Source: Pristiophorus japonicus (lineage: Eukaryota). Taken from it: a stretch of 64,000 nt of DNA. The position numbers were made by a program, and so were the translations under genes. Within the stretch, counting starts at the first letter, position 1. Each line of letters begins with the position of its first letter. The stretch lies in contig NC_091997.1 of NCBI RefSeq assembly GCF_044704955.1, positions 78,678,001 to 78,742,000 on the forward strand. Direction: 5' to 3'. Positions 1,101-62,810 of the stretch are shown piece after piece. The notes under the pieces were generated by a model that searched no databases, was not told the DNA's origin, and was given only the letters and a program-made list of their open reading frames with translations.

Positions 1101-4100
1101 AATGTCCAAGGGGGAGTGTTTGCCAGTGCTGTTGGGGAGGAGTTAAACTAATATGGCAGGGGGATGGGAACCAATGCAGGGAGACAGAGGGAAACAAAAT
1201 GGAGACACAAGCAAAAGACAGAAAGGAGATGAGTAAAAGTGGAGGGCAGAGAAACCCAAGGCAAAAAACAAAAAGGGCCACTATACAGCAAAATTCTAAA
1301 GGGTCAAAGTGTAATAAAAAGGCAAGCCTGAAAGCTCGGTGCCTCAATGCGAGGCGTATTCGGAACCCAGGAGAGGGCTCTGAGCTAGTTAGAGTGAGTG
1401 AGAGCTCAGATGAACAGGACCCCAAGAAAAAATGCAAAAGGCAGGAGGCAACAGAGCAGAGTAGCACTGGGGTAAGTGTAAACCACAAGGTGATAGGAAG
1501 GGACAATATGTATGAATATAAAGGGCTGCAGGAGGGCTCAAAACTAAAAATCATGGTTTCAACACTAGTATTAAAACACTCTACCTAAACGCACGCAGCA
1601 TTTGAAATAAATTAAATGAGTTGATGGCACAAATCATTACAAATGGGTATGATTTGGTGGCCATTACAGAAATGTGGTTTCAGGGTGGCCAAGACTGGGA
1701 ATTAAACATACACGGGTATCTGACAATTCGGAAAGATAGACAAGAAGGGAAAGGAGGTGGGGTAGCTCTGTTAATAAAGGATGATATCAGGGCAGTTGTG
1801 AAAGACGATATTGGCTCTAATGAACAAAATGTTGAATTATTGTGGGTGGAGATTAGAGATAGTAAGGGGAAAAAGTCACTGGTGGGCGTAGTTTATAGGC
1901 CCCCAAATAATAACTTCACGGTGGGGCGGACAATAATCAAGGGAATAATGGAGGCATGTGAAAAAGGAACGGCAGTAATCATGGGGGATTTTAACCTACA
2001 TATCGATTGGTCAAATCAAATTGCACGGGGTAGCCTGGAGGAGGAATTCACAGAATGCATACGGAATTGTTTCTTAGAACAGTATGTTATAGAACCTACA
2101 AGGGAGCAAGCTATCTTAGATCTGGTCCTGTGTAATGAGACAGGAATAATAAACGATCTCCTAGTAAAAGATCCTCTTGGAATGAGTGATCACAGTATGG
2201 TTGAATTTAAAATACAGATTAAGGGTGAGGAAGTAGTGTCTCAAACGAGCGTACTATGCTTAAACAAAGGGGACTACAGTGGGATGAGGGACGAGTTGGC
2301 TAAAGTAGACTGGGAACACAGACTAAGCGGTGGCACAATTGAGGAACAGTGGAGGACTTTTAAGGAGCTCTTTCATAGTGCTCAACAAAAATATATTCCA
2401 GTGAAAAAGAAGGGCAGTAAGAGAAGGGATAACCAGCCGTGAATAACCAAGGAAATAAAGGAGAGTATCAAATTAAAAACCAATGCGTATAAGGTGGCCA
2501 AGGTTAGTGGGAAACTAGAAGATTGGGAACATTTTAAACAACAGCAAAGAATGACTAAGAAAGCAATAAAGAAAGGAAAGATAGATTACGAAAGTAAACT
2601 TACACAAAACATAAAAACAGATAATAAAAGCTTTTACCAATATATAAAACTGAAAAGAGTGACTAAAGTAAATGTTGGTCCCTTAGAAGATGAGAAGGGG
2701 GATTTAATAATGGGAAATGTGGAAATGGCTGAGACCTTAAACAATTATTTTGCTTCCGTCTTCACAGTGGAAGACACAAAAACCATGCCAAAAATTGCTG
2801 GTCACGGGAATGTGGGAAGAGAGGACCTTGAGATAATCAATATCACTAGGGGGGTAGTGCTGGACAGGCTAATGGGACTCAAGGTAGACAAGTCCCCTGG
2901 TCCTGATGAAATGCATCCCAGGGTATTAAAAGAGATGGCGGAAGTTATAACAGATGCATTCGTTATAATCTACCAAAATTCTCTGGACTCTGGGGAGGTA
3001 CCAGCGGATTGGAAAGCAGCTAATGTAACGCCTCTGTTTAAAAAAGGGGGCAGACAAAAGGCAGGTAACTATAGGCCGGTTAGTTTAACATCTGTAGTGG
3101 GGAAAATGCTTGAAGCTATCATTAAGGAAGAAATAGCGGGACATCTAGATAGAAATAGTGCAATCAAGCAGATGCAACATGGAATCATGAAGGGGAAATC
3201 ATGTTTAACTAATTTACTGGAATTCTTTGAGGATATAACTAGCATGGTGGATAGAGGTGTACCGATGGATGTGGTGTATTTAGATTTCCAAAAGGCATTC
3301 GATAAGGTGCCACACAAAAGGTTACTGCAGAAAATAAAGATACACGGAGTCAGAGGAAATGTATTAGCATGGATAGAGAATTGGCTGGCTAAATGAAAGC
3401 AGAGAGTCGAGATAAATGGGTCCTTTTTGGGTTGGAAATCGGTGGTTAGTGGTGTGCCACAGGGATCGGTGCTGGGACCACAACTGTTTACAATATACAT
3501 AAATGAGCTGGAAGAGGGGACAGAGTGTTGTGTAACAAAATTTGCAGATGACACAAAGATTAGTAGGAAAGCGGGTTGTGTAGAGGACACAGAGAGGCTG
3601 CAAAGAGATTTAGATAGGTTAAGCGAATGGGCTAAGGTTTGGCAGATGGAATACAATGTCGGAAAATGTGAGGTCATCTACCTTGGAAAAAAAAACAGTA
3701 AAAGGGAATATTATTTGAATGGGGAGAAATTACAACATGCTGCGGTGCAGAGGGACCTGGGGTCCTTGTGCATGAAACTCTTTTTGGAGTTTATCTGCAA
3801 AACAAAAAAACATTAAACCGTGCCACCCGACCTGGATGACACACCAGACATTTACAAGGCCCTCTTTTTTTCCTTTTTTTGTTTTTTTTTTGTGTTTTCT
3901 TTTTTTGGTTTTTTTTTGGGCACTAAAATCACATTTTTCCCCCAGTGCCCCCTATAAAAGGGAAGGGGGACACTAAAAGCACCGGCAATTAAAACAAATT
4001 AAACTTTAAAACGTAAAATCAAATTAAAATTTGGTTGCCGGGCGTGATGATGCACTCCAGTCCCTCCGGTGCCCACCTCTCGCGGAAGGCCGCGAGCGTA

Positions 4101-4977
4101 CCGGTGGACACCGCGTGCTCCATCTCCAAGGACACCCTGGACCGGATGTAAGAGCGGAAGAGAGGCAGGTAGTCAGGTTGAACGACCCCCTCGACCGCCC
4201 GCTGCCTGGACCGGCTGATGGCACCCTTGGCCGTGCCCAGGAGCAGTCCTACGAGGAGGCCCTCGGACCTACCCGCTCCCCTTCCTTGTGCATGAATCCC
4301 AAAAAAAGTTAGTTTGCAGGTGCAGCAGGTAATCAGGAAGGCGAATGGAATGTTGGCCTTCATTGCGAGAGGGATGGAGTACAAAAGCAGGGAGGTCCTG
4401 CTGCAACTGTACAGGGTATTGGTGAGGCCGCACCTGGAGTACTGCGTGCAGTTTTGGTCACCTTACTTAAGGAAGGATATACTAGCTTTGGAGGGGGTAC
4501 AGAGACGATTCACTAGGCTGATTCCGGAGATGAGGGGGTTACCTTATGATGATAGATTGAGTAGACTGGGTCTTTACTCGTTGGAGTTCAGAAGGATGAG
4601 GGGTGATCATATAGAAACATTTAAAATAATGAAAGGGATAGACAAGATAGAGGCAGAGAGGTTGTTTCCACTGGTCGGGGAGACTAGAACTAGGGGGCAC
4701 AGCCTCAAAATACGGGGGAGCCAAATTAAATCCGAGTTGAGAAGTAATTTCTTCTCCCAGAGGGTTGTGAATCTGTGGAATTCTCTGCCCAAGGGAGCAG
4801 TTGAGGCTAGCTCATTGAATGTATTCAAATCACAGATAGATAGATTTTTAACCAATAAGGGAGTTAAGGGTTATGGGGAGCGGGCGGGTAAGTGGAGCTG
4901 AGTCCATCTTGTTGAATGGCGGAGCAGGCTCGAGGGGCTGGATGGCCTACTCCTGTTCCTAATTCTTATGTTCTTAT
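1101..4977 (+). mobile_element. CR1 (HER1-like) LINE, 5'-truncated: end of ORF1 plus ORF2 (APE endonuclease + RT), decayed
   Basis: ORF1 C-terminus NVQGGVFASAVGEELN*. APE motifs VAITEMW, GVVYRPP, MGDFN, SDH. RT motifs [37 protein letters not shown]. 3' tail ttcttatgttcttat. Premature stops at about 1603, 2440 and 3394. Confidence 0.95.
3777..4282 (-). mobile_element. Tx1/L1-clade non-LTR retrotransposon 3' fragment inserted in the CR1 ORF2
   Basis: 14-bp TSD tccttgtgcatgaa at 3763-3776 and 4283-4296. Minus-strand peptide LLVGLLLGTAKGAISRSR...LFRSYIRSRVSLE...FRERW resembles the Tx1 ORF2 C-terminus and is followed by an A-rich 3' UTR. Confidence 0.75.
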
Positions 4978-12201: not shown

Positions 12202-15200
12202 CATCATCATAGGCAGTCCCTCAAAATCGAGGAAGACTTGCTTCCACTCCAAAAGTGAGTTCTCAGGTGACTGTACAGTCCAATACAGGAATTACAGTCT
12301 GTCACAGGTGGGACAGACAGTGGTTGAATGAAAGGGTGGGTGGGGAGTCTGTTTTGCCACAAGCTCCTTCCGATGCTTGCGCTTGTTTTCTGCATACTCT
12401 CAGCGACAAGACTCGAGGTGCTCAGCGCTCTCCCGGATGCACTTCCTCCACTTAGGGCGTTTTTTGGCCAGGGACTCTCAGGTGTCAGTGGGGATGTCGC
12501 ACTTTATCAGGGAGGCTTTGAGGGTGTCCTTGAAATGTTTCCTCTGACCACCTAGGGCTCGCTTGCTGTGTAGGGGTTCTGAGTAGAACGCTTGCTTTGG
12601 GAGTCTTGTGTCCGGCATGCGGACAATGTGGCCCACCCAATGGAACATAGAAACATAGAAACATAGAAAATAGGTGCAGGAGTAGGTCAATCGGCCCTTC
12701 TAGCCTGCACCGCCATTCAATGAGTTCATGGCTGAACATGCAACTTCAGTACCCCATTTCTGCTTTGTCGCCATACCCCTTGATACCCCTAGTAGTAAGG
12801 ACTTCATCTAACTCCTTTTTGAATATATTTAGTGAATTTGCCTCAACAACTTTCTGTGGTAGAGAATTCCACAGGTTCACCACTCTCTGGGTGAAGCAGT
12901 TTCTCCTCATCTCGGTCCTAAATGGCTTCCCCCTTATCCTTAGACTCTGACCCCTGGTTCTGGACTTCCCCAACATTGGGAACATTCTTCCTGCATCTAA
13001 CCTGTCTAAACCCGTCAGAATTTTAAATGTTTCTATGAGGTCCCCTCTCATTCTTCTGAACTCCAGTGAATACAAGCCCAGTTGATCCAGTCTTTCTTGA
13101 TAGGTCAGTCCCGCCATCCTGGGAATCAGTCTGGTGAACCTTCGCTGCACTCCCTCAATAGCAAGAATGTCCTTCCTCAGGTTAGGAGACCAAAACTGTA
13201 CACAATACTCCAGGTGTGGCCTCACCAAGGCCCTGTACAACTGTAGCAACACCTCCCTGCCCCTGTACTCAAATCCCCTCGCTATGAAGGCCAACATGCC
13301 ATTTGCTTTCTTAACCGCCTGCTGTACCTGCATGCCAACCTTCAATGACTGATGTACCATGACACCCAGGTCTCTTTGCACCTCCCCTTTTCCTAATCTG
13401 TCACCATTCAGATAATAGTCTGTCTCTCTGTTTTTACCACCAAAGTGGATAACCTCACATTTATCCACATTATACTTATCTTCCATGCATTTGCCCACTC
13501 ACCTAACCTATCCAAGTCGCTGTGCAGCCTCATAGCATCCTCCTCGCAGCTCACACTGCCACCCAACTTAGTGTCATCCGCAAATTTGGAGATACTACAT
13601 TTAATCCCCTCGTCTAAATCATTAATGTACAGTGTAAACAGCTGGGGCCCCAGCACAGAACCTTGCGGTACCCCACTAGTCACTGCCTGCCATTCTGAAA
13701 AGTACCCATTTACTCCTACTCTTTGCTTCCTGTCTGACAACCAGTTCTCAATCCATGTCAGCACACTACTCCCAATCCCATGTGCTTTAACTTTGCACAT
13801 TAATCTCTTGTGTGGGACCTTGTCGAAAGCCTTCTGAAAGTCCAAATATACCACATCAACTGGTTCTTCCTTGTCCACTCTACTGGAAACATCCTCAAAA
13901 AATTCCAGAAGATTTGTCAAGCATGATTTCCCTTTCACAAATCCATGCTGACTTGGACCTATCATATCACCTCTTTCCAAATGCACTGCTATGACATCCT
14001 TAATAATTGATTCCATCATTTTACCCACTACCGATGTCAGACTGACCGGTCTATAATTCTTTGTTATCTCTCTCCCTCTTTTTTTAAAAAGTGGGGTTAC
14101 ATTGGCTACCCTCCACTCCATAGAACTGATCCCGAGTCAATGGATTGTTGGAAAATGACTGTCAATGCATCCACTATTTCCAAGGCCACCTCCTTAAGTA
14201 CTCTGGGATGCAGTCCATCAGGCCCTGGGGATTTATCGGCCTTCAATCCCATCAATTTCCCCAACACAATTTCCCGACTAATAAGGATTTCCCTCAGTTC
14301 CTCCTCCTTACTAGACCCTCCGACCCCTTTTATATCCGGAAGGTTGTTTGTGTCCTCCTTAGTGAATACCGAACCAAAGTACTTGTTCAATTGGTCCGCC
14401 ATTTCTTTGTTCCCAGTTATGACTTCCCCTGATTCTGACTGCAGGGTACCTACGTTTGTCTTTACTAACCTTTTTCTCGTTACATATCTATAGAAACTTT
14501 TGCAATCCGTCTTAATGTTCCCTGCAAGCTTCTTCTCGTACTTCATTTTCCCTGCCCTAATCAAACCCTTTGTCCTCCTCTGCTGAGTTCTAAATTTCTC
14601 ACAGTCCCCGGGTTCGCTGCTATTTCTGGCCAATTTGTATGCCACTTCCTTGGCTTTAATACTATCCCTGATTTCCCTTGATAGCCATGGTTGAGCCACC
14701 TTCCCTTTTTTATTTTTACGCCAGACAGGAATGTACAATTGTTGTAGTTCATCCATGCGGTCTCTAAATGTCTGCCATTGCCCATCCACAGTCAACCCCT
14801 TCAGTATCATTCGCCAATCTATCCTAGCCAATTCACGCCTCATACCTTCAAAGTTACCCTTCTTTAAGTTCTGGACCATGGTCTCTGAATTAACTGTTTC
14901 ATTCTCCATCCTAATGCAGAATTCCACCATATTATGGTCATTCTTCCCCAAGGGGCCTCGCACAATGAGATTGCTAATTAATCCTCTCTCATTATACAAC
15001 ACCCAATCTAAGATGGCCTCCCCCCTAGTTGGTTCCTCGACATATTGGTCTAAAAAACCATCCCTTATGCACTCCAGGAAATCCTCCTCCACCGTATTGC
15101 TTCCAGTTTGGTTAGCCCAATCTATGTGCATATTAAAGTCACCCATTATAACTGCTGCACCTTTATTGCACGCACCCCTAATTTCATGTTTGATGCCCTC

Positions 15201-15670
15201 CCCAACATCACTACTACTGTTTGGAGGTCTGTACACAACTCCCACTTACGTTTTTTCCCCTTTGGTGTTCTGCAGCTCTACCCATATAGATTCCACATCA
15301 TCCAAGCTAATGTCCTTCCGAACTATTGCCTTAATTTCCTCCTTAACCAGCAATGCTACCCCACCTCCTTTTCCTTTTATTCTATCTTTCCTGAATGTTG
15401 AATACCCCTGGATGTTGAGTTCCCAGCCCTGATCATCCTGGAGCCACGTCTCCGTAATCCCAATCACATCATATTTGTTAACATCTAGTTGCACAGTTAA
15501 TTCATCCACCTTATTGCGGATACTCCTTGCATTAAGACACAAAGCCTTCAGGCTTGTTTTTTTAACACCGAGTGTGGTCAGTGCTTCGATGCTGGAGATG
15601 TTGGCCTGATCGAGAACACTGAAGATGGTTTGTCTGTCCTCCAAGGGGATTTGCAGGATTTTGCAGAGGC
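12202..15670 (-). mobile_element. RTE 3' fragment (12202-12644 plus 15569-15670) split by a CR1
   Basis: (cat)n tail at 12202; the peptide VLDQANISSIEALTTL continues as WVGHIVRMPDTRLPKQ across the CR1. Confidence 0.85.
12645..15568 (-). mobile_element. CR1 (HER1-like) LINE with near-complete ORF2 and frameshifts
   Basis: Starts at LKALCLNARSIRNK and runs through APE and RT (FADDTK) to a (ttctatgt)n tail; frameshifts at about 15245, 14110 and 13480. Confidence 0.95.
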
Positions 15671-17920: not shown

Positions 17921-18412
17921 CTAGCAAAGGCATTCCCTACATTTTGCATGCTTTGGCTACACATTAGCATACAAACAACATTTTGTAACCTGTGAACAAT
18001 GCATCCCAGAAGGTTGTTTGCTTTCAATTAATTAATCATTAAATAATCCTCATAAAACTCCATTGTGGTACTTTGTTTAATTGTAAATTTATGTTTGATT
18101 ATTGGATTACTTATCCAAAGTTTATCACAGGAGGTATGTCTGTTCATGCCTTTCATAAACATGGGCCAAAAGTAGAGTTCCCAAGCACAAAAGGTTTGTG
18201 TTGGATCAGGCTGTAGAATGATGACAAAGTGATTTATGGCCAGATGTACAACTGCCTGTGTGTGCCTTCATTGCTAAATCACCAAGCTTGCATGGACAAA
18301 AGTTGGAAGATTTAGAACTTGGCTGTGTTCCGTGCTAGCAGATCTGTCACGGCGCGCAATACCCCGGGGCTACAGTTACACGAGTGCAACTGGAGGCACA
18401 GTGCTGTGGTGT

Positions 18413-18808
18413 GGCGAGATGCGGTGAATGTTTATGGCAGAGGAGCAGTGAGAGATCCTGGCGGAGGTGCGACAGATGAGGGTACGGGGCCCAGAAGAGC
18501 CGAGGGCCAGGGGCAGCACGGGCCCAGCCCACACTGCGATATGTGCGCGCACTGGGTCCGTGCAGCAGAGCAGGTCTCCAGTCATCCTGGTTAACCCTTG
18601 CCACTGGACCAAGACCTAGCTCTGTCAAGCCCATTTGATGTCTGATGTGCAACGGTCACCACACGTTTAAAAAAATCCACGCACAGGCATCTTCCACCCC
18701 TTCAATTGGAGTTCAGGACTGAAACATCGGGTTCTTCATCGAAACATCTGTGAACTCGTGGAATCAAGTCATCCTCGTTCGAGGGACCACCTATGATGAT
18801 GATGATGT
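18413..18808 (+). mobile_element. Non-autonomous retroposon with an RTE tail (SINE-like)
   Basis: Non-coding body ending in the RTE 3' terminus (caagtcatcctcgttcgagggaccacctatgatgatg); 11-bp TSD tgctgtggtgt; second copy at 40836-41055. Confidence 0.75.
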
Positions 18809-18819
18809 TGCTGTGGTGT

Positions 18820-19818
18820 AGAAGTGGGTGCGGGAGTGGGAAAATGGGGGGTGGGTGGGGAGAGGAGAGGAGGGGTGGGTAGGGGGAGGGATGTGAGTGG
18901 AGGAGGGGTGGTGGTGTGGGGGAGGAGGTGAGGTGGAAGGAGAGGTGGGGGGAGGGATTTGTGTGGAGGAGGGGTGGGGGTATGGGGGAAGAGGAGGGGC
19001 GAAGGAGGAGAGGTGGGGTAGGGGGAGGAGAAGGGTAGGCTGGGGAGGGGCGAGGGGAGGAGAGGTGGCAGGAGGGGTGTGTGTGGAGGAGGCGTGAGGG
19101 GTGTAGGTAGTGGGGTGTGGAGAAGGATGGATGGGGTTGCGGGGGGTGCGAGTGTATTAGGGGAGGGGAGGGGGAGTGGTTGGGAGAGGAGGGTTGTGCG
19201 GGAGGAAGGGTGGGGATATGGGGGAGGAGGGATGGGAGAGTGGGGGAGGAGGAATGGTGGGGAGGGGTTTGGGGTGGAGGGGTAAAGGGTGTGGGGGGTG
19301 GGGAGGAGAAGTGGGGGGTATGGAGATGGCGAGATGGGGAGGGGATGGGTAGCAGGAGGAGGGGTGGAGGGAGAAGGGATGTGAGTGAAGGAGGGGTGTG
19401 TTGGGGGGACGAGAGGTGGGGTTGTGGAGAAGGAGGAGGGGTGAGGGAGGGTTTGGAGAGGAGGGGTTTGGAGAGGAGGGGTGTGGGTTCTGGGGCAGAG
19501 CGGGGAGATGTGGGGAGGAGGGGAGTGGAGGGGTTGTGGAGGAGCAGTATGGGATGTGAGGGAGGAGGTGTGGGGGAGGGTTTGGGGAGGAGGGGTTTGG
19601 AGAGGAGGGGTGTGGGGTCTGGGGCAGAGGGGTGGGATGTGGGGAGGAGGGGAGTGGAGGGGTTGTGGAGGAGCAGTATGGGATGTGAGGGATGAGGGGT
19701 GGGGGAGGGTTTGGGGAGGAGGGGTGGGGTGGGGGTAGAAGGGATCCGAGTGGAGGAGGGGGTGTGTGGGGGAGGAGTGAGGGAAGAGAATGGTGGGGGG
19801 AGGGTGGGGCCGGGGGAG
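18820..19818. repeat. G-rich purine low-complexity tract with an internal ~129-bp tandem duplication
   Basis: Dense GGG runs; tctggggcagag recurs at 19489 and 19618. Confidence 0.9.
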
Positions 19819-20223
19819 TTTCAATTTTCCAATAACATATTTGGAAAGATCTTTGTAAAAATCCACTTCTGAGGCAGTGAAGTGTTTTTTAGTTCCTGCA
19901 AAATAAATCGATGAATAGATAGAGAAACAGACTTTGCTCCCTCTCATGCTACACTTACACAAATAAGTAAATATATCTTCGCATTTAATTTGCGGAGAGC
20001 ATATTTACCCTTACGGTCCCTCTGTTTATTATAGAAAAGGCCAAGAAATCTTTTCGTATCTGCAGGTTTCCTTTTAATGTACTTAAAGAAAACTTTTGGT
20101 AAAACATTTTAGGTTCAGGGATTTTATTCAGAAGGTCTGTCTAAATTTGAGAAATGCTGTAGTCCTGCTAGAATTTGCAACGAGTTTATATGGACGATAA
20201 ACAAATAGAAGGAGTGTGAATTT

Positions 20224-22403: not shown

Positions 22404-23581
22404 AAGAAAAGAAAGACTTGCATTTATATAGCGCCTTTTAGGACCATCAAATGTCTCCAAGCGCTCTGTGGCCAATGAAGTACTTTTGGAGTGTAGTCAC
22501 TGTTGTAATGTGGGAAATGCAGCAGCCAATCAAGTTCCCACAAGCAGCAATGTGAAAATGACCAGATAATCTGTTTTTTGTTATGTTAATTGAGGTGTAA
22601 ATATCGGCTAGGACACCAGGGATAACTAACTCCGCTGCTAATCTTCGAGCTAACGCCCTGGGATCTTTTACGCACCTGGAATGGCAGGCACAACAACACC
22701 AGTCCAGGCTAACATCCCCAGCATTGAAGCACTGACCACACTCGATCTGCTTCGCTGGGCAGGCCACATAGTTCGCATGCCAGATTCGAGACTCCTTAAG
22801 CAATTTTTTTTTTTTAATTCGTAGCCAATCTTTCCAATTCTTTGTCAAATCACAAACGCCAGAGGTCACCTTGCACACATCAAGGATCACTCTGCGCCAA
22901 TGCTCTTAGCCAAAAGGCCTAGAGCCACTGCACCGTTCCTGGAAGTACTGCAATACCAGGTTCGTGCCATGGAGGTGGATGGGTCAGGCCCCCCACACAC
23001 CTCCGTGGAGGTGGATGGGTCAAGCCTTAAGCAAATGCTTTATGCGGAGCTCCTTCATGGTAAATGAGCCAAAGGTGGGCAGCAGAAGCGTTACAAGGAC
23101 ACCCTCAAAGCCTCCCTGGTAAAGTGCGACATCCCCACTGACACCTTGGGAGACCCTGGCCGAAGACCGCCCGAGGTGGAGAAAGTGCATCCGGGAGGGG
23201 CGTTGAGCTCTTCGAATCTCAACGCAAAGAGCGTGACGAGGTCAGGCGCAGGCAGCGGAAGGTGTGCGCGGAAAACCAGCCCCACCCATCCCTTCCCTCG
23301 ACGAATGTCTGTCCCACCCGTGACAGAGTCTGTGGCTCTCGTGGCGGACTGTTCAGCCAACAGAGAACTAATTTTGGGAGTGGAAGCAAGTCTTCCTCGA
23401 TTCCGAGGGATTGCGTATGATGATTAACATCTCATCCGAAAGACAGCGCCTCCGACAGTGCAGCACTCCCTCAGCACTGCACTGGGAGTGTCAGCCTAGA
23501 TTTATGTGCTCAAGTTTCTGCAGTAGAACTTGAACCCACAACTTTCTGACTCAGAGGTGAGTGTGCTGCCCACTGAGCCAC
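22404..23581 (-). mobile_element. DeuSINE split by an RTE 3' fragment (~22700-23424, plus strand)
   Basis: Tail at 22404-22677 and head at 23425-23581; the RTE has the QANIPSIEALTTL peptide and a (tga)n tail. Confidence 0.82.
22804..23024 (-). mobile_element. Poly(A) retroposon containing U2 snRNA-derived segments
   Basis: 10-bp TSD ccttaagcaa and A12 tail. Contains cctggtattgcagtacttccaggaacggtgca (U2 3' stem-loop IV) followed by ggccttttggctaaga (U2 5' stem-loop I). Confidence 0.85.
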
Positions 23582-25094
23582 ATTAATGCGCATGTCCAGA
23601 AAGGTAAGAGAGCTTTTACGTTGGGTCTCTGCTTGTGATGAACTAACAAGACTAGATGCTACTTCGCCCTGTAGTTGATCAATGTGTGTGTATCACACTG
23701 GATAATGACTTTGCTAATTAACTTGCTTTCTGGTGCCACCCCATTTGCAGTCACATTCTTTTGAATCACCGTGCAATGATCCTGAGATATGCCAGGGGAT
23801 ATTTTAGCTTGCCGCACAGCCTTTATCCCCCTGTCAGTCATTCTTGCAGGTTTGATCCTGTTTTGTTTAACTTGGCAGTCTACCCAGATGTGGTGACATC
23901 ACCTGCGATTTCATCATTTCAGATATGTATGTTAGCAGAAAATGCAACAGAGAAGGGAGGGTGAATCAGATTTGCAAGGAAAATAAGGGCTGCTGACTTG
24001 CATTTGAATGAACGGTTACTATAACCCAAAGCGTTATCGTCAGGCAGGGAGGGACTTCTCTTGGACTGCTAGCTGAACATATCCCTTCTCTCCCACAGTA
24101 AGGGATTGGCACTGTCTTCGCTTAATGCTCAGGCTGTTCAGATGCACCATGTTTGCTTAAGAGGTGCTTGACTTTTGCCTTCGAGTTTTATGTATGATCA
24201 CAACTGGCTTTTTGCCTCTTTTGCTTTTCTGTTCCAGCTCCCTGGTCTGCAGTGCGAGCTGCTCTTCCCTGTGGACCCCCAAAAGCTGAACTTTGTCTCG
24301 GCAGGGTGCAAGACCTGTCCTGCTACAGAAGGCTCTTGTTTGCTTTGGCTGAGGATCCGAGCCAGCAGCGATGCACCATTGCCTGGCACACAAAACAAAA
24401 ATGAATCGCTTAATTTGTTTTTCAGGATTGCCTGTGGAAAGGTAGGTACGATCTCTAGTGTGCTTATAGTGATCACTTCTCCCCCTTTTCTCGTCTTCAA
24501 AGTGCATTTGGGATTAGTAAAGTTGCTTTTGAATGCCTTTTACAGTAGAGCAATATGATAGACTGGAGTAAAATAACAAAAGATGCCAGTCTGCAACTAT
24601 TGGGGGACAAGTTCACTACATTAAGGTTATTGTTCAAATATTTTCCTGCCAATCCCAGATTTGACTGAAAATGACTTGTTTTCACCTGCTAAAATATGGA
24701 AAATAATATCTGTACAATTGTTACTTACTGCAATTGAATGGACAGAATAGAACTAAATAAGGGCTTTCATAACTCAAGATCACTGTGTAAATTATATGAG
24801 AACCTTGAAAGATGGTAATATGATCGCGAGATGGTCCAATTTGTTTATCTTGGGCTATCATTTAGAGTTTATGTTCAGGACCTCTGTAAACTATTAACAA
24901 ATGTCGTGTCTTTGCCAAGCCCACATTCTGATACTCCCTGTTGCACCACGATTCAGTCCATTTCCTTTTTGCAAGTTGAACCAAGTCTATATTCGCTCTG
25001 CTTAGTTGAATCTATTCCACAAGTGAATCATCGTACAACATGAAGCAGTTACCCGCTCCAGTTGCTCCTGATGGTAAGCGAAGAGTGTGCGTAA

Positions 25095-28437: not shown

Positions 28438-31400
28438 GGGCTAGAAATTGGCCGGCCCTGCGTCCGTTTTTTTCGGCGATATTTCGTCTTTTTTGATGAG
28501 AAAAGGTGCTTACCTAAATCAGCTAAAGTTGTGCGCCGGCGGTTTTGAAATACCGCTGAAAAACAGACCGCCGCCGCCGTGCAACGTAAAAAAAAAGCGA
28601 TACCGCTTTAAATTAGCCATTCGACGCACCCGTATTCTGCGTGAAAAAAAAACGCCCGAGAAAAGCCTGCATTGTAGGCCCAGAAACAGCGGTAAGTATG
28701 AAGACCTGCAAAAAAAGGCAAGTTAAATTTTTTATTTGTTAATTCTTTTGCATCGATTACTTAGTTAAGGGTCTTGTAAATGTTTTGTGATTTCTTTTTT
28801 GCAATTTCTTTGTGTGTGTTTTCCCCTGTAATGTCTGTAAGCTTGTAATGTCTGTAGCTCCACACTATGGATGTGGACGTATTGTGTACTGCAATTGCAC
28901 AGTTAATAATAAACAGAACCAGGCAGATTTCCAGAGGCTTCCGATAGAGCTGCCTGCCATGTAGGAAGCTGTGTGTGCTTGTGCTCTGTGAAGATATTAC
29001 ATTTGGCGATTGAGATGGGATGTTTTGGCTGATTTACAGCTTAAATTTTGTTGGTGAAGGATTCAGCCAGCCGACAGAGAGACTTTGGAAGTTTCTGTCT
29101 TTGGAAAAAAAGCTACAAAATCCGAGGTAAAATACAGCACACAGTGCGAACAGCTAGAGATTAAAATGGTAGGTGCAATCGGACATTTTGGGGAATATAG
29201 ACACGACCGGGAACGTTTTAAAGCGTACGTGGATCGGCTAGAAATGTATTTCACTGCAAATAACATAATCGAAGTTCCAGACAATGCAGTCCAGAATCGG
29301 GCTGTGTTGGAACGTAAGAAAACGATCTTCTTTTCTGAGGTGGGTCCGGCATTAAACGAAATCTTTGTAAATCTCCTTGTGCCTGATTAGCCAAAGGACA
29401 CAATGCTTAAAGAGATTTTAACGAAGCTGGAGCAGCACTATAATCCCATACCGTTAGAAATTGCTGAAAGCTATCGTTTCGAGATTCGGAATCAAAAGGC
29501 TAATGAAAGTATCAGTGATTACATCGTAGCATTAAAAAAGCTATCGATGCACTGTACATTTGGAAACTTTCAAAACCGAGCATTATGGGATCATTTTGTT
29601 TGTGGGGTGAAAAATGATGTGATCAGAAGGAAGTTATTGACGATGGATGACTTGACTTTTGAGATTGCTTGTCAGACAGCGAGGTCGATGGGCATGGCCG
29701 AACAATATTCCCGCGAATTAAATAATGATTACGGTCATCAGTCAACTGAGGTAAATCACCTGTAGGTTCAAAGTAAAAGATGGTGGGGGCCCAAAGTCTC
29801 AGAAACTCGAAATTCTAATAGAGTGTCGAAGTCGTGCTATAGGTGCCTGGGACAACACATTGCTCAAAGTTGTCCATACATGAAGGCAGAGTGTTTCTTC
29901 TGTAGGAAGACTGGGCATCTTGCGAAGGCATGCCGACTGAACAGTAAACCAGTTTTAAAGCTATGAGTCCAGCTTTCAAAGCTTTGAGTAGAAATCCCAA
30001 GAGACTACATAGCATGGAAGAACAACAACAGGATGAGGAGATGTTAGAGTTACACGTCATCAGGAGCACGAGGTTAACGGACAGCGATTCAGAAAGCATC
30101 AAAATGCACGTAGATGTTGCGGGATTCAAGATACCAATGGAAATTGACACGGGTGCATCGTGAGTGCAGTACCGGAGTCACTATATCGTGACAAATTGCG
30201 TGATTTCCAACTGGAGATATCCAAGATAGAGCTGCGAGGCTACTCGGGAGAAAATATTCCTGTGGTAGGTCGTATCACTCTACCGGTGAAATATAAAGAT
30301 CAATTTCAGAACTAATAGTAGTGAAAGGAGACAAGTCTGCCTTACTAGGAAGAAATTGGTTGAGCTCACCGAAGATGGATTGGAGTAAGATTTTCGTGTG
30401 GAAGCGAGATTTTCATCAACGGATGAGGTTATCAAGAAGTATCCGAAGGTGTTCTGTGAAACGGGCAGTCCGATCCAAGGCTTCAAGGCGAGTGTCAGGG
30501 TACAGAAGGACGCTAGATCGGTTTACTACAAGCCACATTCTGTACAATAAGCACTCAAGGAGAAAGTTGAGCAAGTACTCAAAAGACTAGAGACTGAGAA
30601 CATTATTTGTAAGATAGATCGATGTAATTGGGCTACACACATTGTTGTTGTACCTAAGTCCGATGGTAAGGTAAGATTGTGTGGTGCTTATAAAGTAACC
30701 GTAAACCAGGTTCTAGAGGGTAATGTCCCCAATACATTGCCGAATATAGGAGATTTGTTCACAACACTGACAGGTGGTCAGATCTTCTCAAAACTGGATC
30801 TTACGAATGCCTACTTACAGCTTGAACGAGATGAGGAGTCCAAGTCATGTTTGACTATAAATACTCATCTAGGCCTATATCAATTTAATAGGCTACCGTT
30901 TGGAGTGTCTTCCACCCCTGCCATATTCCAAGAGGTGATGAACCAGATTTTGCAAGGTATTGAAGGGGTAGTAGGTTATTTGGATGAGATACTAACTTCA
31001 GCACCAAATAGGCAAATTCATAATAACATCTTGAATGAAGTCCTCAAACGGCTAGAGAAGCACAGAGTACGAGTGTCTGCTCTTACGTGTGAGTTATTTA
31101 AAAACTCAGTGGAGTACTTAGGGTACAGAGTAGACAAAGATGGTTTACATCCAACCATGGAAAAATTGGATGCAATTAGAAATGCACCCACTCCCAGGAA
31201 TGTCACTGAACTTTGTTCATTCTTGGGTCTTTTGAACTATTATGGGAAGTTCCTACCAAATTTGGCTACAGTATTACATCCACTGAATGAACTATTGAAA
31301 AAACAGGTCCATTGGAAGTGGTCAAAAGAATGCGATACAGCATTCAAGGAGAGTAAAAGCAAATTGGTAGAGAGCACCATGTTAGTTCACTATGAAGATT

Positions 31401-33782
31401 AAGCTAGCATGTGATGCCTCTCCGTATGGAGTTGGGGCAGTGATCTCTCATGTATTAAGTAGTGGGGAGGAGAGACCAATTGCTTTTGCTTCACGCAATC
31501 TCAGTGCCAGTGAGAGTAATTATGCGCAAATTGAAAGGGAAGCTTTGGCATTAATTTTTGGGGTCAAGAAGTTTCACAAATATTTGTATGGTCGTAAGTT
31601 TACCATCATTACAGATCATAAGCCCCTAACAGCAATCCTCCATCCAAGGTCCCTAGTTACATTAGCTGCAGCCCGAATGCAGAGATGGGCTTTGATTTTG
31701 TCAGCATATACATATGATATTGAATACAGATGATCAGCTGATCACAGTAATGCTGATGCAATGTCTAGATTGCCTTCCCCATCACAAGTTACACCCGATA
31801 GGGAAGAAGTGTTTTATTTTTCATACATTGATGAACTGCCAGTCACAGCTGAAGAGATTGGTAGAGCAACAAACGTGACCCAGTGATGTCAAAGGTGTAT
31901 GAGTATATTGCAAATGGATGGCCAAACAGGTAACAGACAAAGATACACATCCATTCTTCATTCGTAGGAATGAATTATCAATCAATAAAGATTGTATCAT
32001 GTGGGTGCAAGAATGGTTATACCAAATAAATTCAGGACCAAATTATTAGGAGACCTCCATGACCAGCAACTGGGAATGTGCTTGACCAAGAGTTTTGCAC
32101 GCAATTATTTATGGTGGCCAGGTGTTGATAAAGATATAGAGTACATCGTGAGTCAGTGTACAACATGTCAATCGGTAAGCAAGCAACCACCACCAGTACC
32201 ATTACAATCATGGAAATGGCTTCCCAGGGTGTGGCAAAAGCTACATATTGATTTTGCTGAGTTAGAAGGACAATAATTGTTCATTGTGATTGATAGCCAT
32301 TCGAAGTGGGTTGAGGTGTTCCAAATGTGGAAAATAACAACAAGCAAAACATTGGACATTTTACAGAAATTATTTTCTTCGTTTGGCCTCCCTGAAGAAA
32401 TTGTTTCGGAAAATGGACCACAATTTTGTTCAGAGGAATTTACACAATTCACGAGCAAAAATGGTGTGAAACATACCAAGGTTCCACCATATCAACCTGC
32501 TTCGAATGGTGCAGCAGAGCGCACTGTATAAATTGTGAAACGTGCCCTCATAAAACAAATGTTAGATCCAAATCCAAAGAAACGACAGTTGTCATTGGAT
32601 CACAAATTGGCTAATTTTTTGATTACATATCAAAATACTCCTCATACAACTACTGGGAGAACACCAGCAGAGTTGTTTCTCAAACGACAGCCACGAACCA
32701 GATTCTCATTGTTAAAGTCAAATTTGGCACAGTCCGTAGAAGAGACACAATTAAGACAGAAAGAGAATCATGATAGAGGTAGAGTAAAAGAGAGAAGTGT
32801 GAAATTAAACCAGAAGGTGAGAGTGAAGAACCATCACCATAAATGGTTAAAGTGGTTACCAGGAAGAGTGGTGAAGATATGTGGTCCTCGCACATATTTG
32901 GTAAAGATGTTTGATAATGGACAGGTTAGGTTTGTTCATATTGATCATATTTTACCTACAGACATGGAAGGAGTTGAAGGTGGGAATGATTCAATTATTT
33001 CTGACTCATCAGATAGTTTTGATACACCAGTAGCAAATCCTAAATCCAATGTACTGGAAACAAATCCAGGAGAGAATCAGAATGAAAGTCTGAGTCCGAG
33101 TCAGGAAAACAAAGAGCCTGAAGTTAGAGTGAGTTCAAATGAAAATCAAGGAAATTCCATGGAGTAAAACGTTCCTCAGGATGAGCCTTGAATGAGTTTA
33201 GATTCGACACCATGTTTGGAAAATTCTGTTCGAGAGCGAAGGTATCCTCTTCGAAACAGAAAACAAGCGGTAAAGTTAAATTTGTAAATATGGAAAAAAA
33301 ATACATTTATATCCTGTGTTATGAATAAACATGAAAGTTATGTATGATATTTGTTATAATAACTTCTTCATTAAGGAGGGAAAAGTGTAATATCTGTAAG
33401 TTTGTAATGTTTGTAGCTCCACACTATGGATGTGGACGTATTCTGTACTGCAATTGCACAGTTAATAATAAACAGAACCAGGCAGATTTCCGGAGGCTTC
33501 CGAGAGAGCTGCCTGCCATGTAGGAAGCTGTGTGTGCTTGACCTCTGTGAAGATATTACATCCCCACTCCCAGGGACTGTCTTTTTAGCAATAATCGGCC
33601 TCGGACTAAAGTTGGTGAAGACCGCAGTTTCCACAGTAAATCCTCGTGCAATGCCACTTTTTATCATTGGCCACATTTTGTTGCCAATTTTATACCTTTA
33701 AAAAATAGTGGTATTTGTAACGGTATTCATGGCAAAAAATGCTGTAAAAATTCCGCTATCACCAAACGACCAATTTCAACCC
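28438..33782. mobile_element. Harbinger-type MITE (28438-28826 plus 33561-33782)
   Basis: Imperfect TIRs gggctagaaattgg and ccaatttcaaccc; 3-bp TSD aat. Confidence 0.7.
28827..33560 (+). mobile_element. Full-length decayed Ty3/Gypsy LTR retrotransposon (Mag/K02A2.6-like)
   Basis: 175-bp LTRs at 28827-29001 and 33386-33560 (8 mismatches), TSD tcccc, PBS 29004-29021 resembling tRNA-Ser(GCT), PPT 33373-33385. Gag has two CCHC knuckles; PR DTGAS; RT YLDE; RNase H CDAS; integrase HHCC and catalytic core. Many stops and frameshifts. Confidence 0.95.
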
Positions 33783-36508: not shown

Positions 36509-36700
36509 AAGCAGAAAATAGAAATACACAGCAGGTCTGTGGAGAGAGAAACCGAGTTAACGTTTTGGGTTGATGAAAGGTCACGGACCTGAAACCTTAA
36601 CTCTGTTTCTCTCTCCGCAGATGCTGCCTGACCTGCTGAGTGTTTCCAGCATTTTCTGTTTTTAGTTCAGATTTCCAGCGTCCACTGTATTTTCCTTTTG
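36509..36700 (+). mobile_element. Penelope terminal palindrome with a degenerate hammerhead
   Basis: 36509-36566 is an inverted repeat of 36591-36663; core tgatga-a-aggtc-acg-gacct-gaaa at 36571-36594. Confidence 0.65.
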
Positions 36701-48806: not shown

Positions 48807-51800
48807 CGTCATCATCATAGGCAGTCCCTCAAAATCGAGGAAGACTTGCTTCCACTCTGAAAGTGAGTTCTCAGGTGACTGAACAGTCCAATACAGGAAT
48901 TACAGTCTCTGTCACAGGTGGGACTGACAGTCGTTGAAGGAAAGGCTGGGTGGGGAGTCTGGTTTGACGCATGCTCCTTCCGCTGCCTGCGCTTGCTTTC
49001 TGCATGCTCTCGGTGATGAGACTCGAGGTGCTCAGCGTCCTCCCGGATGCTCTTCCTCCACTTAGGGTGGTCTTGGGCCAGGAATCCCAGGTGTCAGTGG
49101 GGATGTTGCACTTTATCAAGGAGGCTTTGAGGGTGTCCTTGAAACGTTTCCTCTGCCCACCAGGGGCTCGTTTGCCGTGTAGGAGTTCCAAGTAGAGCGC
49201 TTGCTTTTGGGGTCTTATGTCGGACATTTGAACAATGTGGCCCGCCCAACGGAGCTGGTTGAGTGTGGTCAGTGCTTCGATGCTGGGGATGTTGGCCTGA
49301 TCGAGTACACTAACGTTGGTGTGTCTATCCGCCCAGAGGATTTGCAGGATCTTGCGGAGACATCGCTGGTGGTATTTTTCCAGCAATTTGAGGGGTCTAC
49401 TGTATATGGTCCACGTGTCTGAGCCATACAGGAAGGTGGGTATCACTACAGCCCTGTAGACCATAAGCTTGGTGCCAGATTTGAGGGCCTGATCTTCGAA
49501 AACTCTCTTCCTCAGGCGACCGAAGGCTACGCTGGTGCACTGGAGGCGGTGTCGATAGTAGGCTCCCGAGGTATGGAAAGTGGTCCAAGGCCGTGCCGTG
49601 GAATTTGATGATTGCGGGGCAGTGCTGTGTGGCGGGATCAGGTTGGTGGAGAACCTTTGCCTTATGGATGTTTAGTGTTATGCCCATACTTTTGTATGCC
49701 TCGGTGAAGATATTGACGATGCTTTGGAGTTCAGCCTCTGAAAGTGTGCATACACAAGCGTCATCCACATACTGTAGTTCGACGACAGACGATAGGATGG
49801 TCTTGGATCTAGCCTGGAGGCGACAAAGGTTGAACAGGTTCTATAGTTTAGCTCCATTCCAGCGGGGAGCTTGTTGAGCATGAGATGGAGCATTGCAGCG
49901 AGGAAGATCGGGAAGAGGATTGGCGTGATGACACAGCCCTGTTTGACCCCAGTCCAGACATGGATTGGTCAGGATCACGGCTTGCATGTCATAGAAACAT
50001 AGAAACATAGAAAATAGGTGCAGGAGTAGGCCATTCGGCCCTTCTAGCCTGCACCGCCATTCAATGAGTTCATGGCTGAACATGCAACTTCAGTACCCCA
50101 TTCCTGCTTTCTCACCATATCCCTTGATTCCCCTAGTAGTAAGGACTTCATCTAACTCCTTTTTGAATATATTTAGTGAATTGGCCTCAACTTTCTGTGG
50201 TAGAGAATTCCACAGGTTCACCACTCTCTGGGTGAAGAAATTCCTCCTCATCTCGGTCCTAAATGGCTTCCCCCTTATCCTTAGACTGTGTCCCCTGGTT
50301 CTAGACTTCCCCAACATTGGGAACATTCTTCCTGCATCTAACCTGTCTAACCCTGTCAGAATTTTAAACGTTTCTATGAGGTCCCCTCTCATTCTTCTGA
50401 ACTCCAGTGAATACAAGCCCAGTTGATCCAGTCTTTCTTGATAGGTCAGTCCCGCCATCCCGGGAATCAGTCTGGTGAACCTTCGCTGCACTCCCTCAAT
50501 AGCAAGAATGTCCTTCCTCAGGTTAGGAGACCAAAACTGTACACAATACTCCAGGTGTGGCCTCACCAAGGCCCTGTACAATTGTAGCAACACCTCCTGC
50601 CCCTGTACTCAAATCCCCTCGCTATGAAGGCCAACATGCCATTTGCTTTCCTAACCGCCTGCTGTACCTGCATGCCAACCTTCAATGACTGATGTACCAT
50701 GACACCCAGGTCTCTTTGCACCTCCCCTTTTCCTAATCTGTCACCATTCAGACAATAGTCTGTCTCTCTGTTTTTACCACCAAAGTGGATAACCTCACAT
50801 TTATCCACATTATACTTCATCTGCCATGCATTTGCCCACTCATCTTACCTATCCAAGTCGCTCTGCAGCCTCATAGCATCCTCCTCGCAGCTCACACTGC
50901 CACCCAACTTAGTGTCATCCGCAAATTTGGAGATACTACATTTAATCCCCTCATCTAAATCATTAATGTACAGTATCGTGGAGCAGGCGGAGGATGGTGA
51001 CAAACATTTGGGGGCAGCCAAAATGGAAGAGGATGCTCCATAGTCCCTCGCGGTTGACAGTGTCAAAGGCCTTTGTGAGGTCAAAGAAGGCCACATATAA
51101 GGGTTGGTACTGTTCCCTGCATTTCTCTTGCAGTTGTCGCACCGTGAAGATCATGTCTGTTATACCCCTTAGTGGACAGAATCCACACTGTGACTCCAGG
51201 AGGAGCTCCTCAGCCACAGAGAGAAGACGGTTGAGGAGGATTCTAGCAATGACCAACAACAGGGAGATTCCTCTTCAGTTGCAGCTGTCGGACTTGTCCC
51301 TTTTTTAAAGATGGTCATGATTATGGCATCTCTGAGATTTCCAGATATGCACTCCGCCTTCCAGATGAGAGATGAGGTCATGCATTTGCGCCAATAGTGC
51401 CTCTCCGCCATACTTTAGTCCCTCGGCGTAGATTCCATCTGCTCTTGATGCCATGTTGTTCTTGAGCTGGCGGATGGCCTTTTCTACTCATGCAGGGCTG
51501 GGGTTTTGCTGAGATGGTGGCGGGTAGCATGCTGTGGGATGGAGTCGAGGACACTCATGTCAAAGGCAGATTCTCGGTTGAGGAGATCTTCGAAGTGTTC
51601 CTTCCAGCGGGCCCTGACTGCCTCGGTGTCCTTGATGAGTGTCTCCCCGTTCTTGGCTAGCAGTGGGGTGGGGCCTTGGGTGTTTGGACCGTAGGTGGCC
51701 TTGACTGCGATGAGAAATCCTCGCACATCATGGCTGTTGGCCAGCTGCTGTATCTCCTGTGTTTTCTCTATCCACCACCTGTTCTTTTTGTTGGACCCCG

Positions 51801-61131: not shown

Positions 61132-61280
61132 ATTGGACTCAAATTTACATTCTATGTCATGCAGAAGGCATCTCAAATCACAAAGTGGTACGACCCTTCA
61201 ATCATGGCAAATAGCATTGGTAGCCAATGATATACTCCTGTTCACAGGCATCGTTCTTTCCTATTAAAGCAACAACAAAA

Positions 61281-61810
61281 GGAAGCAGAGCGATAAGAAA
61301 GGAAGGAAGGAAGGAAAGCGATAAGAAAGGAAGGAAGGAAGCAGAGCGATAAGAAAGGAAGGAAGGAAGCAGAGCGATAAGAAAGGAAGGAAGCAGAGCG
61401 ATAAGAAAGGAAGGAAGCAGAGCGATAAGGAAGGAAGGAAGCAGAGCGATAAGAAAGGAAGGAAGGAAAGCGATAAGAAAGGAAGGAAGGAAGCAGAGCG
61501 ACAAGAAAGGAAGGAAGCAGAGCGATAAGGAAGGAAGGAAGGAAGCAGAGCGATAAGGAAGGAAGGAAGGAAGCAGAGCGATAAGGAAGGAAGGAAGGAA
61601 GCAGAGCGATAAGGAAGGAAGGAAGCAGAGCCAAAAAGGAAGGAAGGAAGCAGAGCCAAAAAGGAAGGAAGGAAGCAGAGCAGAGCGATAAGGAAGGAAG
61701 GAAGCAGAGCAATAAGAAAGGAATGAAGGAAGCAGAGCGCTAGGAAAGGAAGGAAGGAAGCAGAGATAAAGAAGGAAGGAGAGAAGGAAGGGGAAGGAAG
61801 GAAGGGAGGG
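61281..61810. repeat. Compound tandem repeat GCAGAGCGATAA(G/GA)-(AAGG)n
   Basis: Units visible directly, with variable AAGG number. Confidence 0.95.
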
Positions 61811-62810
61811 ATGTACTCGGTGGCTCAGCCCAGCCCTCGGTGCACAGTGCGAGCCCGGATGCGGGCTCCGGGCAGCAGTGAGGTGGCTTCCCGCGGGAGC
61901 GGGGAACAGGCGCTGTCTGAGCACACGGGGACTAGGCGCAGGGTGTGGAAACACAGGCCGCTTGTCGCTCGGTGACCCCCCAGGGGCCGGAGGGCCGCTC
62001 ACGGGCGGCTCCAGCGTTTCCCGCCGCTCTGCTCAAAGTGTGACGGCAGCCCGCTCCTGTTTGAGGGGCGGCGGGGGTGGTATTGTTTCTCATTTTCTGA
62101 AACATTGTTCTCTTTCTGTAACCTAGCTCCTTTTCATTGTTACTATTTAAAGCAAGTGTCCCGCCGCTATGAGCTAACACACTTGCAGTTTCAAGCTCTG
62201 CTCTCCGAAACTTCCGCCATCAACTGAAGCGCGGGCTCCGACCGTTGGCGCTTTTATAGCGGGGCCGCCGCCCACCTGACCGCCGGCGCGAGCAACGCCC
62301 TGGCAACGCCCAGGTAGGCCCCGCCCACCGAGCCGGCGCGCGCCCGGACTCTCCTCCTGCCCGCCAACGCTTAGCCCCGCCTCCTTTCTTTCTCACCCAC
62401 TCCGACACCGCGCACTGCGGCTCCTCCCCGCCCCCGCGCGCCCGCTCTCACTCTCTCTCTCTCTCTCTCAGCCCCGCCCCCCCCTTCCCCTTTCCCTCGC
62501 ACCGCCCCTCCTCCTTCCCGCCTCGCGCGCACAAGCGAACGAAAGAGAAAAGAGCCGCACTTGCGATTGGCCGATCGCCCGGCTGGCGTCATTTGGCACG
62601 CACGTGACCGCTCCTGGCTGCACTCGCTCGAGCGGCGGGGAAGGAGGAGGGAGGCGGTGGTGGCGGTTTGCCGGACAATTCAAAAAAACAAAATGGAGCG
62701 TGGCAGAGCGGCCAATTTCTGAGGTGCGTGCGTGTGTGTGTGTGTGGTGGTGGTGGTGGAAGAAAGGTCAGCGGCTCACAACCGTTTTGAAAGGAGGCGC
62801 CGGGGGGGGA
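61810..62810. promoter_or_regulatory. CpG island, probable bidirectional promoter
   Basis: CpG-dense unique sequence. Minus-strand TATAAAAG (62251-62258) with Inr-like TCAGTT (+1 ~62225). GC boxes, CCAAT (minus, ~62566), E-box CACGTGAC at 62601, YY1-like CAAAATGG at 62689. Plus-strand donor GAG|gtgcgt at 62723/62724. Confidence 0.75.

Follow-up and report, generated by a model that had tools for sequence, protein, structure and literature searches.

A Retroposon Insert with U2 snRNA Modules, Probably SINEU-like in Design, within a LINE Fragment of a Likely Shark Sequence

The 221-bp insert at positions 22804-23024 of the window, namely the whole stretch of 64,000 nucleotides that was analyzed, is probably one copy, likely truncated at its 5' end, of a multi-copy, non-coding retroposon that combines pieces of U2 snRNA with a tail of its own and a poly(A) end, and that is likely copied by a LINE of the L1/Tx1 type. 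The element is probably SINEU-like by design and carried by a shark. SINEU elements are known from crocodilians and none was found outside them according to Kojima (2015, PMC4494074). They are mentioned as crocodilian in PMC5381603 and are also mentioned in PMC5786205. No snRNA-derived SINE of sharks was found in searches of the open-access literature, and the terms snRNA and SINEU have no occurrence in the available part of PMC5499810, a study of chondrichthyan SINEs.

Insertion Scar and Host LINE

The insert lies on the minus strand, reads from 23024 to 22804 and ends in a poly(A) of 12 nt (22804-22815, read directly). It is bordered by two copies of the 10-bp target-site duplication ccttaagcaa, hereafter abbreviated as TSD, which exact repeat comparison places on the minus strand at the 5' side of the insert (23025-23034) and behind the poly(A) (22794-22803). 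These copies are flush with both insert ends and constitute the sole exact repeat of 7 bp or longer between the two boundary regions scanned, and the 10-mer occurs in none of about 20,000 random 300-bp stretches taken elsewhere in the 64-kb window. Together with the poly(A), the duplication forms an insertion scar of the endonuclease type. The coordinates, strand, A12 and exact 10-bp TSD of the preliminary description are all borne out by direct reading. The GG closing the 5'-side TSD also agrees with what should stand just ahead of the first arm of stem III described below, and a 2-nt microhomology between this TSD end and the stem-III arm is possible.

The insert interrupts the frame of a single plus-strand LINE ORF2 fragment, to which both of its flanks belong. 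Frame reading delimits a part of this C-terminal fragment before the insert (22705-22803) and a part after it (23025-23424), the latter being 70-85% identical to eight other copies in the window. The frame closes with LLKQ before the insert and takes up again with LKQ after it, the duplicated bases encoding LKQ, whereas this motif is single in the four other copies of the host LINE that were inspected in the window. The host repeat also continues past this position without the insert in 92 and 18 contigs of sequencing run X3, which represent paralogous empty sites. A sister copy shows a weak RVT_1 match. The two best identities of a sister LINE frame, 72% and 77%, are with gene models of Pristiophorus japonicus, a sawshark, the remaining 52 of 54 matches reaching at most 64%; these identities give modest support for a shark host, as they concern a transposon and most of the matches bear no species label. 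The earlier placement of the insert inside an RTE fragment holds for the LINE frame, given the LKQ repeated across the insert; the RTE label is a presumption from motifs.

An abundant short repeat (23424-23582) adjoins the host LINE fragment and recurs near 5.7k, 8.6k, 12k, 20.3k, 27.5k, 34k, 39.7k, 47.3k and 57k, its copies being 73-90% identical. Its head is presumably tRNA-like; ARAGORN called no tRNA in it. Elsewhere, strongly skewed simple-repeat tracts occupy 18000-20000 and 61200-62000, and the segment 62000-64000 is GC-rich (0.59) and possibly a CpG island.

Neither flank of the insert is U2, unlike the site of Keno, which inserts into the U2 gene after nt 38. A Keno-like target was considered for the insertion site and dismissed, the likeness amounting to a few bases only (PMC6136364).

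U2 Modules of the Insert

Read along the minus strand, the insert presents a spare arm of stem III, a full stem-III-like hairpin, stem-loop IV, stem I, the tail and the poly(A), in this order; its visible 5' sequence (22902-23024) is wholly U2-derived. Stem-loop I (22902-22925) is defined by its fold together with positions 7-26 of the Rfam U2 model RF00004, which align at 22904-22923 with 17.8 bits (E 0.98 over 4,227 families) and with 19 of 20 bases identical to the printed consensus. The consensus 20-mer has a single match in the 64 kb at up to three mismatches versus none in 100 shuffles, and the binomial probability of such a match anywhere in the 64 kb is about 7e-6, so that the match of stem I is far beyond chance. 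The U2 5' segment that had been reported within a hairpin is thereby sustained. The fold of this module (-14.8 kcal/mol, z -3.50) has an outer stem of five pairs, where the aligned portion of the model has three, and nowhere but in its UUUU loop does the insert contain a T4 run.

The 3' domain of U2 is represented by a module of about 75 nt, in which a narrower scan with RF00004 gave an alignment spanning both stem III and stem-loop IV at 15.7 bits (E 0.36). The complete stem-III-like hairpin (22971-23004, from the Rfam U2 alignment and fold) has 12 pairs and an 8-nt loop, and its fold of -22.8 kcal/mol (z -2.74) is equaled in 1 of 200 shuffles. Stem-loop IV (22930-22967, also from the Rfam alignment and fold) ends at about the 3' end of U2 and lies where the preliminary description had recognized it. 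Its loop shares 10 of 11 bases with the vertebrate loop as defined in PMC4114683, G7 included, and the U.U closing pair is present. An 11-mer from this loop recurs twice elsewhere in the window; the significance of the U2 assignment therefore rests on the stems and their context, since the loop 11-mer by itself is not rare. Binding of U2B''/U2A' to an RNA of the insert would be plausible from these residues, and any recent copy of U2 would show the same loop.

Both U2 matches lie far below 46, the gathering score of RF00004, and the Rfam scan of the whole window at E<=1 does not report U2. Such sub-threshold scores are expected because the modules are fragments, and ordinary annotation would therefore miss the insert. 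The search with the U2 model that had been proposed aligned both modules, which retain the base pairing of U2 itself. The insert folded as a whole only modestly beats its shuffles (z -2.01, 9 of 200). Matches to Prion_pknot, PVT1_4, mir-1003 and KCNQ1OT1_1 remain below the respective gathering scores and were taken as chance products of the duplicated arm or of composition. At a distant position of the window (36537-36620), 84 bp give sub-threshold matches to the precursor model of mir-14 on either strand, as a near-perfect inverted repeat does; this segment may be a hairpin or a small DNA transposon.

The spare arm at the 5' end of the copy (23005-23024, minus strand) was delimited by self-alignment as a 3' arm of the U2 stem III type that stands by itself. 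It repeats the 3' arm of the complete hairpin at a period of 36 nt, with 20 of 21 aligned bases identical when two TSD bases are counted. The duplicated 17-mer noticed earlier is thus real, and its second copy is the 3' arm of the complete hairpin at 22971-23004. The duplication of the arm and the continuation of the match into TSD bases fit a truncation inside a doubled stem III; the copy was likely truncated within such a tandem.

At the join between the two U2 modules, the similarity to the 3' part of U2 stops about six positions or less short of the model's end and stem I starts three bases later, about six 5' bases of U2 being missing. A motif search found neither an Sm site nor a branch-point motif in the insert. 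The insert is not collinear with U2 and answers neither to a U2 gene nor to a plain processed pseudogene, in agreement with the preliminary description, which had already set it apart from ordinary processed U2 pseudogenes: the order is reversed, both motifs are absent and the scores are 15.7-17.8 bits against 46. A single U2 that was circularly permuted, either as a circularized RNA that reopened or as a rearranged gene, and then retroposed would also bring the 3' end of U2 next to sequence from near its 5' end. We regard this origin as very improbable and it is already disfavoured, since stem I is followed by an unrelated, multi-copy tail of 86 nt instead of U2 positions 27 onward, the 5' bases are absent at the join, the Sm and branch-point motifs are lacking and stem III is doubled. 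The earlier description of a permuted order therefore stands insofar as the U2 3' module precedes the 5' module; permutation as such is not needed, a head-to-tail fusion fitting the join best.

Tail, Coding Capacity, and Promoter Content

The tail (22816-22901, minus strand) has 86 nt, close to the roughly 85 nt of unrelated sequence first reported, and has no convincing Rfam match; it contains a small 5-bp hairpin at 22869-22885 and is found at many loci. Its fold is no better than that of shuffles (z -0.45). A presumed resemblance to U6 is unsupported: at E<=10, Rfam gave nothing for 22814-22903 but a bacterial RNA (E 3.5). The ATTAAA at 22818 was discounted as a signal because it overlaps the poly(A). 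There are no open frames longer than 45 codons in the insert, nor any ORF2 with APE endonuclease and RT in its 221 bp, which are themselves apparently truncated. Exact matching of consensus patterns found no A box or B box in the visible insert.

These features bear on whether the insert could be the 3' UTR of an autonomous Tx1 or L1 LINE that captured pieces of U2 and was truncated before ORF2. The insert is likely 5'-truncated, and poly(A)-tailed with a 10-bp TSD, only 209 nt of it are visible before the poly(A), and a LINE upstream is conceivable since full-length members presumably extend beyond this copy on the 5' side. Moreover, Tx1 elements are tied to U2, the target of Keno lying after nt 38 (PMC4640811; PMC6136364), and snRNA heads are described on Tx1-Mar (PMC4494074). 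We nevertheless consider such an origin quite unlikely: snRNA pieces are described at the 5' end of Tx1 elements rather than in their 3' UTR (PMC4494074), the tail is shared with no LINE in the window, and stem I stops at model position 26 and not at the Keno site, 38.

Copies in Sequencing Runs

No second copy of the insert was found in the 64-kb window. Nine public runs from four studies contain sequence words of the region, and the seven that contain half or more are all from organism A, the best of them perhaps stemming from the sample of the window itself; none of the nine is listed as RNA. Contigs of four runs were aligned to 22760-22925, a segment comprising the 3' junction, the tail and stem I. 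In run X3 (72% of the run) 4,308 contigs aligned, those of the 44-bp host flank counted in, of which 756 show at least 99% identity, 1,326 show 95-99%, 1,628 show 90-95% and 598 lie below. Hence 2,082 of the 4,308 contigs, host-flank contigs included, are at least 95% alike, versus 70-85% for the copies of the host LINE, a rough sign that the family is young.

At least 90 contigs of run X3 (38+14+18+20) exit the poly(A) into other sequence, and their flanks past the poly(A), with median lengths of 35-255, agree with the consensus at 0.41-0.47. This low agreement means that no flank is shared, the loci being numerous and independent of one another, and no target prevails among the flanks listed. 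The tail and stem I are thus multi-copy and lie at many unrelated loci, which disposes, for these two parts, of the notion that the insert might be single-copy, a circumstance that the preliminary description had held to be fatal to its proposal. In run X8 of organism B and run X9 of organism C, contigs cover the host flank only and the tail not at all at 80% likeness; contigs inform on presence, not on absence.

One contig of run X3 leaves a poly(A) end, crosses 25 other bases and enters a further copy, the first base of which falls within stem I, at 22920. This head-to-tail pair resembles the tandem insertions described for SINEU-3 (PMC4494074). It could also be taken to mean that the family consists of stem I, tail and poly(A) only, stem III and stem-loop IV having been added once, in the present copy, when the reverse transcriptase switched template to the U2 RNA of the cell. 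Chimeras of snRNA and retroelements formed by template switching, triple ones among them, are described (PMC4476161), as are repeated independent 5' additions in SINEU-2 (PMC4494074). Yet the switches recorded in mammals mostly involve U6 and U6atac (PMC4476161) and the doubled stem III would require a second event, so that a one-off addition appears unlikely to us. The evidence for the join comes from the present copy, the contig alignment having covered the tail and stem I.

A distinct situation is presented by X5, a small run from another sample of organism A for which the kind of library is not on record. The ratio of summed depth between the tail and the host LINE is 27.9 in X5 versus 0.68 in X3, that is 41-fold higher. 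Between 84 and 95% of the tail depth in X5 is due to one variant, which combines four substitutions at 22871-22879 with a 7-nt deletion at 22846; in X3 the same changes account for 0.05-6.6% of the depth, with 38% at one site and 0.05% for the diagnostic deletion. The change at 22871 converts a U-A pair of the tail hairpin to U.G, and the remaining substitutions fall in the hairpin loop. The depth of X5 falls about ninefold from the bin 22832-22837 to the bin 22826-22831. Run X5 represents a selected library or a different individual, and is no evidence of expression.

Proposed Origin of the Element

The features of the insert would be accounted for by a core unit composed of U2 stem I, the tail and poly(A). 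Having finished this core unit, the reverse transcriptase may have jumped onto the 3' end of U2 or of a U2-like RNA, a template jump that would have put stem III and stem-loop IV ahead of stem I, and slippage would then have doubled stem III. The composite presumably served as a source element thereafter, and the present copy would result from reverse transcription that set out from the poly(A) and broke off within the first of the two stem III units. The 3' module ending near the end of the model, with stem I following so closely, has the shape of an end-to-end template jump. The reversed order needs no permutation because the join is head-to-tail, and serial 5' addition is known for SINEU-1. 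The broad interpretation offered at the outset, a U2-derived retroposon family, is upheld by the TSD, the poly(A), the U2 modules and the multi-locus tail; the reversed order in it is real, the permutation being dispensable.

The source was likely transcribed by pol II, given the lack of pol III boxes and the T4 run in stem I; it would have used a borrowed upstream promoter, possibly that of the U2 genes. A partner of the L1/Tx1 type is likely because of the poly(A), the 10-bp TSD and the crocodilian precedent, the assignment to this clade being a guess by analogy with the crocodilian case. The window yielded no L1/Tx1 frame, and the long RT frames inspected there look CR1/L2-, RTE- or Gypsy-like by their motifs. 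Long and fairly intact LINE frames of CR1/L2 type with endonuclease and RT lie at 1606-4901, 12746-15432 and 50090-50608, and a broken LTR element with an RVT_1 frame, presumably Gypsy-like by its motifs, lies at 30551-33167. Mammalian L1 target sites begin with an A-run. The target of the insert does not open with one, and no target is common to the other loci among the X3 flanks listed.

Comparison with Known Systems

The closest systems are the SINEU-1 elements (J, F, E, C/H), which are likewise short and non-coding, with U2 5' modules stacked before an unrelated shared tail, and also have poly(A), a TSD of about 10 bp, partial duplication of snRNA modules, an internal T run and no pol III boxes (PMC4494074). 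In SINEU-1J a short head from U2 precedes a tail of unrelated sequence, while SINEU-1F and 1C/H arose by further 5' additions of U2 that left heads with partial duplications, template switching being the proposed cause of this growth (PMC4494074). SINEU are multi-copy units of common structure, as distinct from sets of independent chimeras, and are mobilized by a Tx1 LINE of the same target preference; of the present element, the tail and stem I are multi-copy. Several other features that characterize SINEU are found in the insert, namely a U2-derived visible 5' part, a 3' poly(A), an altered target site and, in the visible part, no internal pol III promoter (no boxes, and a T4 run); SINEU are non-coding and below 500 bp, and the present copy has 221 bp, itself apparently truncated. 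Unlike SINEU-1, the host is probably a shark and not a crocodilian; copies of SINEU-1 are 83-92% identical to their consensus whereas the shark family is apparently young, and SINEU-1 prefers Mariner-N4_AMi whereas no common target is seen for the shark copies (PMC4494074). SINEU-1 was compared here through its description in the text; the U2 segments of its individual subfamilies may bear on the novelty of the module order.

With SINEU-2 and SINEU-3 the insert shares snRNA fragments, frequent 5' truncation and tandem insertions; however, SINEU-3 contains U2 in normal order with an internal deletion and SINEU-2 contains U1 followed by U2, whereas the insert has the U2 3' module followed by the 5' module (PMC4494074). 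Keno, of the Tx1 clade, and Utopia offer another case of LINE machinery linked with U2 genes and thus a candidate partner clade, but these elements are autonomous, their insertion point in U2 following nt 38 (PMC4640811; PMC6136364), while the insert lacks an ORF, lies within a LINE fragment and carries a stem I piece ending at model position 26. The insert is neither a Keno insertion nor a plain U2 pseudogene. The chimeric retrocopies of snRNA and LINE also place an snRNA piece ahead of a retroposed unit within one TSD; they are one-off products, mostly with U6, the 3' part of which comes from a LINE or an mRNA (PMC4476161), whereas the 3' part of the insert is itself U2-headed and multi-copy.

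Implications

A bolder reading, which we hold to be rather doubtful, is that sharks independently evolved a young and abundant SINE that mimics the U2 snRNP, with a few master copies transcribed by pol II from captured U2 promoters and with the U2B''/U2A' platform and the reinforced stem I having been kept. By this snRNP-mimic reading, stem III with stem-loop IV and stem I would be retained for stability or for delivery to a Tx1 protein; Alu, which uses SRP9/14, provides the analogy for a delivery role. If it were true, the tail variant dominant in X5 would mark a master copy, and the way in which snRNA-derived SINEs are transcribed would become directly testable in a living family. The transcription of snRNA-headed SINEs that have no internal promoter is left open in PMC4494074.

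A single copy adds little beyond the family, and the value of the present one lies in its clean scar, its map of modules and the direct evidence for many loci. A second and apparently young family, in a cartilaginous fish and with U2 pieces stacked in the same manner, would mean that such a design emerges time and again wherever LINEs associated with U2 occur, and living copies would let the capture of promoters, the LINE partner and the binding of snRNP proteins be tested.
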